From the IMG/VR virus record IMGVR_UViG_2850802633_000004: a DNA stretch of 41,734 bases; one strand, 5' to 3'. Below the pieces are notes generated by a model, which searched no databases, was not told the origin of the DNA, and saw nothing but the letters and a program-made list of their open reading frames with translations. Positions 16,653 through 17,955 of the stretch are shown here, piece after piece (the stretch's first letter is position 1; every line of letters begins with the position of its first letter). The stretch is from a virus. Taxonomy: Duplodnaviria > Heunggongvirae > Uroviricota > Caudoviricetes. The position numbers and the translations under genes were made by a program.

Positions 16653-17955
16653 TATGTCTAAATTACCAACAGGTGTCGAGATTCGAGGTAAATACATTCG
16701 CATCTGGTTCATGTTTCGAGGAAAACGATGTCGGGAAACATTGAAAGGCTGGGAGATTACTAACAGTAACATTAAAAAGGCCGGGAATTTAAGAGCGTTG
16801 ATAGTTCATCAAATCAGTTCCGGTGGGTAATGACTCCAACTTACTGATAGTGTTTTATGTTCAGATAATGCCCGATGACCTTGTCATGCAGCTCCACCGA
16901 TTTTGAGAACGACAGTGACTTCCGTACCAGCCTTGCCAGATGTTGTCTCAGATTCAGATTATGTCGCTCAATGCGCTGAGTGTAACGCTTGCTGATAACG
17001 TGCAGCTTTCCCTTCAGGCGTGATTCATACAGCGGACAGCCATCCGTCATCCATACCACGACCTCAAAGGCCGACAGCAGGCTCAGAAGACGCTCCAGTG
17101 TGGCCAGAGTGCGTTCACCGAAGACGTGCGCCACAACCGTCCTCCGTATCCTGTCATACGCGTAAAACAGCCAGCGCTGATGTCCGGCAGTGCTTTTGCC
17201 GTTACGCACCACGCCTTCAGTAGCGGAGCAGGAAGGACATCTGATGGAAATGGAAGCCACGCAAGCACCTTAAAATCACCATCATACACTAAATCAGTAA
17301 GTTGGCAGCATTACCTGACCCGTTATCTAAAACAGAATTCAATGCATTAATGGAAAGTGAAAAAGGACAGAGCCAAAACTTGTGGAAATTTGCCGTTTAC
17401 TCCGGGCTTCGTCACGGGGAACTGGCAGCTCTGGCGTGGGAGGATGTGGATTTCGAGAAGGGAATTGTGAATGTCAGAAGAAACCTGACGATACTTGATA
17501 TGTTCGGTCCCCCAAAAACAAATGCCGGGATCCGGACGGTAACATTACTGCAGCCGGCTCTTGAAGCACTGAAGGAGCAATACAAACTGACCGGGCATCA
17601 TCGCAAAAGCGAAATCACTTTTTATCATCGGGAGTACGGCAGAACTGAAAAACAAAAACTGCATTTTGTTTTCATGCCCAGGGTGTGTAACGAAAAACAG
17701 AAACCTTATTACTCGGTAAGCAGTTTGGGTACAAGATGGAATGCAGCAGTAAAACGTGCTGGTATTCGCCGCCGTAATCCGTACCACACGCGACATACTT
17801 TTGCCTGCTGGCTGTTGACGGCAGGAGCGAACCCGGCATTTATAGCCAGCCAGATGGGGCATGAAACTGCGCAAATGGTGTATGAAATTTACGGTATGTG
17901 GATTGATGACATGAACGACGAACAGATAGCCATGTTGAATGCGCGGTTATCGTAG
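16653..17955 (+). pseudogene. Phage tyrosine integrase interrupted by internally deleted IS1
   Basis: N-terminal arm-binding-like MSKLPTGVEIRGKYIRIWFMFRGKRCRETL (16653..16825); C-terminal catalytic domain with RHTFACWLL and HETAQMVYEIY (17316..17955); central part of gene missing. Confidence 0.75.
16826..17315 (-). mobile_element. IS1 copy C with internal deletion fusing insA to insB (489 bp), no target duplication
   Basis: Both IS1 termini present (GGTAATGACTCC... and ...GCAGCATTACC); ORF 16841..17260 is InsA N-terminus fused to InsB C-terminus at the short repeat CAGCGCTG. Confidence 0.85.

Follow-up and report, generated by a model that had tools for sequence, protein, structure and literature searches.

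How did an IS1 copy that is itself too short come to lie within an integrase gene that lacks its middle, with no target duplication around it? The locus is part of a stretch of 41,734 nucleotides (hereafter, the window). The first-pass annotation of this DNA proposed that an IS1 had inserted here and that DNA had then been lost both within the element and next to it, and our comparisons support that proposal: 278 bp are missing from within the IS1, and 424 bp of the integrase gene, intR, are gone from beside it. The locus very probably records three separate mutations, each of an ordinary kind, in a Rac-type prophage remnant that adjoins the sitABCD genes of Shigella flexneri. The structure of the locus, the evidence for the order of these events, and the alternatives to this account are described below.

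A split integrase gene and a truncated excisionase gene

In the IntR/XisR module of the Escherichia coli Rac prophage, intR is located between xisR and ttcA (PMC4632033). The counterparts of this module in the window are as follows.

16480..16652, plus strand: xisR remnant; homology to the E. coli xisR-intR region starts at 16480
16654..16825, plus strand: 5' fragment of intR, nt 1–172 (aa 1–57), with most of the arm-DNA-binding domain; 1 mismatch in 172 nt
17316..17955, plus strand: 3' fragment of intR, nt 597–1236 (aa 200–411), with the whole catalytic domain; 3 mismatches
17956..18212, plus strand: att region 3' of intR, consisting of an int-proximal arm, a 43-bp core and a sit-proximal arm

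As reference we used the intact 1236-bp intR gene of E. coli CFSAN029787. Alignment to this homologue shows that both fragments come from one gene and that together they lack 424 of its 1236 bp (34%; nt 173–596, aa 58–199), in agreement with the earlier estimate of roughly a third. The start of the integrase had been placed at 16653, but its ATG is at 16654. The missing residues comprise the end of the arm-binding domain and the entire SAM-like core-binding domain. In Pfam searches the 5' fragment covers positions 1–53 of the 65 in Arm-DNA-bind_2, and the listed reading frame of this fragment extends into the IS1 as far as 16830. The 3' fragment covers positions 6–165 of the 172 in Phage_integrase and aligns to the structure of the Tn1549 Int protein across the catalytic core; the catalytic domain (aa 205–391) is complete in sequence. 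The usual annotation at this fragment is a 217-aa reading frame that begins with a TTG codon at 17302, inside the left terminal repeat (IRL) of IS1.

The 9-bp sequences that flank the IS1, GTTCCGGTG and TGACCCGTT, correspond to intR nt 164–172 and nt 597–605, which are 424 bp apart in the intact gene. They are thus not a target duplication, as had been noted from the sequence at the outset.

The locus resembles the Rac module at ttcA in its greater than 99% identity to E. coli intR, which is high over all of the retained sequence, and in its gene order, with xisR upstream and, downstream, an att core that includes the first ~50 bp of a ttcA-like reading frame. It differs in that intR is split and lacks aa 58–199, so that there is no uninterrupted reading frame with arm-binding, core-binding and catalytic domains, and in that sitABCD rather than ttcA follows the att core. 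The excisionase gene differs as well: the end of an IS3-family element, the inverted repeat of which ends at 16479, has taken the place of the first 43 bp of the 216-bp xisR. To judge from these features, intR at this locus is a pseudogene, split by IS1.

The att region and the sit genes

A 43-bp stretch (18014–18056) is common to the intR-ttcA junction of E. coli, where the match ends at about 18056, and to the uspF-sit junction of other Shigella, where the match starts at 18014. Five same-strand TTTGCCCC motifs, which are candidates for arm-type sites, surround this core, with two on the int side and three on the sit side. The DNA 3' of intR resembles an intact attP, and not attL or attR. 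In S. flexneri, ttcA is reported to be unoccupied (PMC4632033). The arrangement suggests that the sit island of S. flexneri is Rac-like and that its integration did not involve its own att site.

Several small differences between strains occur on either side of the integrase gene. The copy number of an 11-bp tandem unit, CTTTTTTGCCC (window 18157–18181), differs between S. flexneri strains. Within sitA (18417–19330), a run of C residues at 18940 has five bases here (C5) and six (C6) in strains G1663 and M90T and in CP034060.1. The C5 run splits sitA into reading frames of 206 and 114 aa, and the sitA of CP026765.1 has been called as a 304-aa product. More than 24 contigs from other Shigella assemblies, in which sit adjoins uspF/ompN, encode the same 206-aa SitA product. 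The C5 allele may reflect either recurrent homopolymer slippage or sequencing error. To the left of the integrase, a 14-bp stretch, ACTTGATGAAATTA, at 15036–15049 in a gene with an AAA_24 domain (14197–15357) is absent in G1663.

The short IS1 copy

A search of the window for IS1 terminal repeats found six, which delimit two 768-bp copies and one 490-bp copy. The features of these elements are as follows.

16826..17315, minus strand: internally deleted IS1, 490 bp, with both terminal repeats intact
16826–16848, plus-strand match: IS1 right terminal repeat (IRR), the left end of the short copy
16841..17260, minus strand: 139-aa in-frame fusion of InsA(1–29) to InsB(58–167) with a GTG start, from translation and Pfam
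17173..17180, no strand assigned: single retained copy of AGCGCTGA, the junction of the 278-bp deletion, from alignment to the full copies
17293–17315, minus-strand match: IS1 IRL, the right end of the short copy
25719–26486 and 33398–34165: full-length IS1 copies of 768 bp in the same window, from their terminal repeats

The ends of the short copy are exact matches to the ~23-bp IRL and IRR, for which the chance expectation in the window is 0. The first-pass annotation was correct that this copy is short, but its length is 490 bp as measured between the terminal repeats (16826–17315) rather than 489 bp. When 16826..17315 is aligned to full-length IS1, the short copy is colinear with both full copies in the window from end to end, save for a single 278-bp gap; it is therefore not a full-length element. 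With the IRL end numbered as 1, the absent bases are IS1 nt 144–421 or, equivalently, 136–413.

The edges of the gap are formed by an 8-bp direct repeat, AGCGCTGA on the plus strand, which reads TCAGCGCT on the coding strand of IS1. This repeat occurs at element positions 348 and 626 in the full copies and at 348 alone in the short copy, and it is one of two perfect 8-mer direct repeats in the whole of IS1. A deletion at a short repeat common to insA and insB had been proposed, and such a repeat does exist; the letters given for it, CAGCGCTG, are one base off, with only 7 of the 8 bases common to both sites.

The short copy closely resembles the chromosomal IS1 variant of S. flexneri. Its terminal repeats are identical, and all of its 490 retained bases are those of the full-length copy at the same locus in strain G1663, including an A at element position 211 that is present in neither of the other two IS1 copies in the window. 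In contrast to that variant, it does not have the 768-bp body with insA, insB' and the A6C -1 frameshift site: most of insA and the start of insB' are lost, and the A6C site (GTTTTTTAA) falls within the deleted 278 bp. It also lacks the direct target duplication of 8–9 bp that is typical of IS1, and it is not autonomous. The DNA around it is rich in copies of IS1 and of IS3-family elements.

The InsA-InsB fusion

The reading frame of the short copy had been described as the N-terminus of InsA fused to InsB, and this is borne out by its translation, in which InsA residues 1–29 are joined to InsB residues 58–167 to give a product of 139 aa. Both copies of the repeat encode Gln-Arg (GHQR followed by YLC in insA, and SRQR followed by WLF in insB). 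Because this dipeptide is encoded in both frames and 278 equals 3n-1, the deletion restores a single frame, and the fusion is in frame by chance.

Pfam assigns positions 1–30 of the 35 in Zn_ribbon_InsA and positions 18–131 of the 131 in DDE_Tnp_IS1 to the fusion, and the HTH_Tnp_IS1 domain is absent. The zinc ribbon of the product is thus without its second Cys pair and the DDE_Tnp_IS1 profile without its first 17 positions, and both the helix-turn-helix (HTH) and the A6C frameshift site are missing. The first catalytic Asp of InsB, which we take to be the one within the 'EMDEHW' motif, is probably lost along with these profile positions. Both InsA and InsAB' need the zinc finger and HTH for binding the ends of IS1, and the DDE motif is needed for catalysis (PMC12903888, PMC12428005). 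Lacking the HTH and the frameshift site, and probably the first catalytic Asp as well, the short copy is predicted to make neither the InsA repressor nor the InsAB' transposase. The exact 139-aa product is recorded solely as WP_134798230.1, 'IS1 family transposase [Shigella flexneri]', from one chromosome, CP026768.1.

Comparison among S. flexneri strains

Three other S. flexneri genomes, G1663 (CP007037.1), CP034060.1 and CP026765.1, each have a full-length IS1 of 768 bp between left and right flanks that are identical, over 30 nt, to those of the short copy. The right IS1/intR junction is also common to M90T and five draft contigs, and the 217-aa reading frame that runs from the IS1 IRL into the 3' fragment of intR is found on approximately 20 S. 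flexneri contigs. Every S. flexneri locus that we fetched already has the 424-bp deletion in intR. The presence of identical junctions around full-length IS1 in other genomes indicates that the IS1 insertion and the loss of its 424-bp flank are old and common to several S. flexneri lineages. Among the IS elements of Shigella, IS1 is the most numerous, and a large part of the expansion took place before the diversification of S. flexneri (PMC7373316). An old, shared insertion and flank loss fits such an early expansion.

Across 5.7 kb, a single SNP and the 278-bp gap are all that separate this strain from CP026765.1, the closest relative that we found. This near-identity, together with the match to G1663 at all 490 retained positions, indicates that the internal deletion arose in place. 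It appears to be the later event and private to one assembly, CP026768.1.

Two further differences concern the IS1 copy at this site. Element position 211 (window 17036) is an A/C polymorphism that changes a Trp of InsB to Cys. This strain has A, as do G1663 and M90T, and C is found in CP034060.1 and in CP026765.1, which is otherwise nearly the same as this strain. The distribution does not match the relationships of the strains, and may be due to gene conversion between IS1 copies or to recurrent mutation. In M90T (1–2246 of the fetched locus), the sequence on the left side of the IS1 bears no relation to xisR and intR and partly matches window 5581–6108, which indicates that a rearrangement has occurred at this IS1 copy in the M90T lineage.

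Searches for further copies and for intermediates

Two queries span the junction of the 278-bp deletion: a 46-mer, built so that full-length IS1 cannot seed a match, and a shorter 27-mer, GTAAAACAGCCAGCGCTGATGTCCGGC. The 46-mer has no match in 5426 complete E. coli genomes, 72,556 PLSDB plasmids or the GTDB species representatives. The 27-mer is absent from JGI metagenomes and also from the GTDB representatives.

A search of complete E. coli genomes for an ancestral single insertion with its duplication produced no true match to either IS1/intR junction. Some E. coli genomes were listed with both IS1 and intR and were considered as intermediates, but we rejected them, as their IS1 copies lie elsewhere (in the interval from xisR to intR, around nt 850 of intR, or upstream) and represent independent events. 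In four independent E. coli draft assemblies, contigs start exactly at intR nt 601, which is 4 nt from the S. flexneri junction. We checked this position as a possible common IS site, and 1866 of the 1868 intR copies in complete genomes are uninterrupted there. In E. coli PSS-12, an IS5 lies near nt 608 of intR. In E. coli, intR is a recurrent IS target.

Order and mechanism of the deletions

We propose that an ancestor of several S. flexneri lineages would first have acquired an IS1 within intR. The 424 bp of intR beside it would then have been lost, and the target duplication with them, through either an adjacent deletion by the IS1 transposase or recombination of two IS1 insertions in the same orientation. 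Much later, and in the CP026768.1 lineage alone, 278 bp inside the IS1 would have been lost in place by slipped-strand or microhomology-mediated deletion between the two copies of AGCGCTGA.

Adjacent deletions promoted by IS1 are a classical phenomenon. IS copies that lack a target duplication are commonly attributed to adjacent deletion or to IS-by-IS recombination (PMC11708052). The intR locus is similar to such cases in that an end of the IS abuts a deletion of neighbouring DNA and its flanks are unmatched. It differs from them in that the route is reconstructed here, with no ancestral insertion state found among the genomes searched.

For this second step alone, a possible though less favoured explanation is that two IS1 copies inserted in the same orientation, at nt 172 and nt 597 of intR, and then underwent homologous recombination. 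S. flexneri has very many IS1 copies (PMC7373316), intR has been targeted repeatedly by IS elements in E. coli, and the product, a single IS1 with non-matching flanks, would be identical by either route (PMC11708052). However, two hits within 424 bp would be required, versus one hit and one deletion, and none of the genomes searched has two IS1 copies in intR, or one IS1 with a duplication at either site.

Slipped-strand deletion at short direct repeats, independent of RecA, is well established in E. coli genetics. We infer that a slipped-strand (microhomology) deletion is the best account of the 278-bp loss, because the endpoints fall on one of the only two perfect 8-mer direct repeats in IS1. 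The repeat is present at both endpoints in the parent copies and as a single copy in the product, and the undeleted allele occurs at the same site in relatives, as in the characterized deletions of this type. Unlike those deletions, this one is known solely from the signature that it has left in the sequence.

The IS3-family (IS629-like) element to the left of xisR (window 15329–16479) has a deletion of its own. Relative to the same copy in G1663 and CP034060.1, this element, 1.2 kb to the left, lacks 155 bp. An 8-bp direct repeat, CATGGCGG, marks the edges of the gap (deletion point 15970/15971), a signature like that of the deletion in IS1. Since CP026765.1 has the 155-bp deletion too, it predates the 278-bp deletion in IS1.

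We consider it improbable that the 278-bp gap is an artefact of assembly or consensus calling, or a minority variant in the culture. The gap is present in one assembly only, and the same assembly differs by 1 bp in the sitA C-run (C5 versus C6). However, a clean, perfectly flanked loss at an 8-bp direct repeat is what a biological event leaves behind and is not a usual kind of error, the C5 allele of sitA is also found in more than 24 other contigs from independent assemblies, and the 155-bp deletion in the IS3-family element, which has the same signature, is confirmed in a second genome.

Even less credible is that the two integrase fragments belong to different genes that were brought together by an IS1-mediated rearrangement. 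The unrelated DNA to the left of the same IS1 in M90T does demonstrate that rearrangements at this copy occur. In the present locus, however, both fragments are more than 99% identical to one E. coli intR, in the same order and orientation, and they lie between xisR and the att core just as in intact loci. A single intR gene, entered by IS1 and then deleted beside it, thus remains our preferred reading.

Mobility of the short IS1

DNA bounded by IRL and IRR can be moved in trans by the IS1 transposase (PMC12903888). As the short copy keeps both ends, other IS1 copies could in principle mobilize it. It resembles miniature inverted-repeat transposable elements (MITEs) and other non-autonomous derivatives of IS elements in keeping both ends and encoding no working transposase, to judge from the missing domains. 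It is unlike them in that it occurs once, at the position of its full-length parent, and gives no indication of having spread: dispersed copies with target duplications of their own were not found, the collections searched having yielded one place in one chromosome. Since its deletion junction is absent from all of the collections searched, the short IS1 does not appear to have spread as a MITE.

It is conceivable, but in our estimation unlikely, that the 490-bp element is a newborn MITE, with many active IS1 copies available to mobilize it in trans, or alternatively that the 139-aa fusion could interfere with IS1 transposition. That it was a mobile MITE-like derivative already shortened when it entered intR, as its intact terminal repeats and the capacity of the transposase to act in trans (PMC12903888) might suggest, is scarcely tenable, given a full-length IS1 at the same two junctions in three other genomes, one of them a near-identical relative, no target duplication, and no second copy in this genome or in any collection searched.

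Consequences for the prophage remnant

With IS1 in place and the middle of the gene gone, we infer that a full-length integrase cannot be made from intR as one protein. Because intR is split and xisR is truncated, the prophage remnant adjoining sitABCD would be grounded, unable to excise by its own machinery. The locus is an instance of ordinary IS-driven gene decay in Shigella, of a kind that is already known, and its significance beyond annotation is small. It does offer a clean and datable case of such decay proceeding stepwise: the integrase would have been killed by IS1 and the flanking deletion, the excisionase cut by another IS, and the IS1 itself would then have decayed in turn. The 490-bp IS1 may serve as a strain-specific marker for the CP026768.1 lineage. 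For S. flexneri, the outcome would be a prophage remnant that bears the sitABCD iron/manganese transporter and is locked in place.
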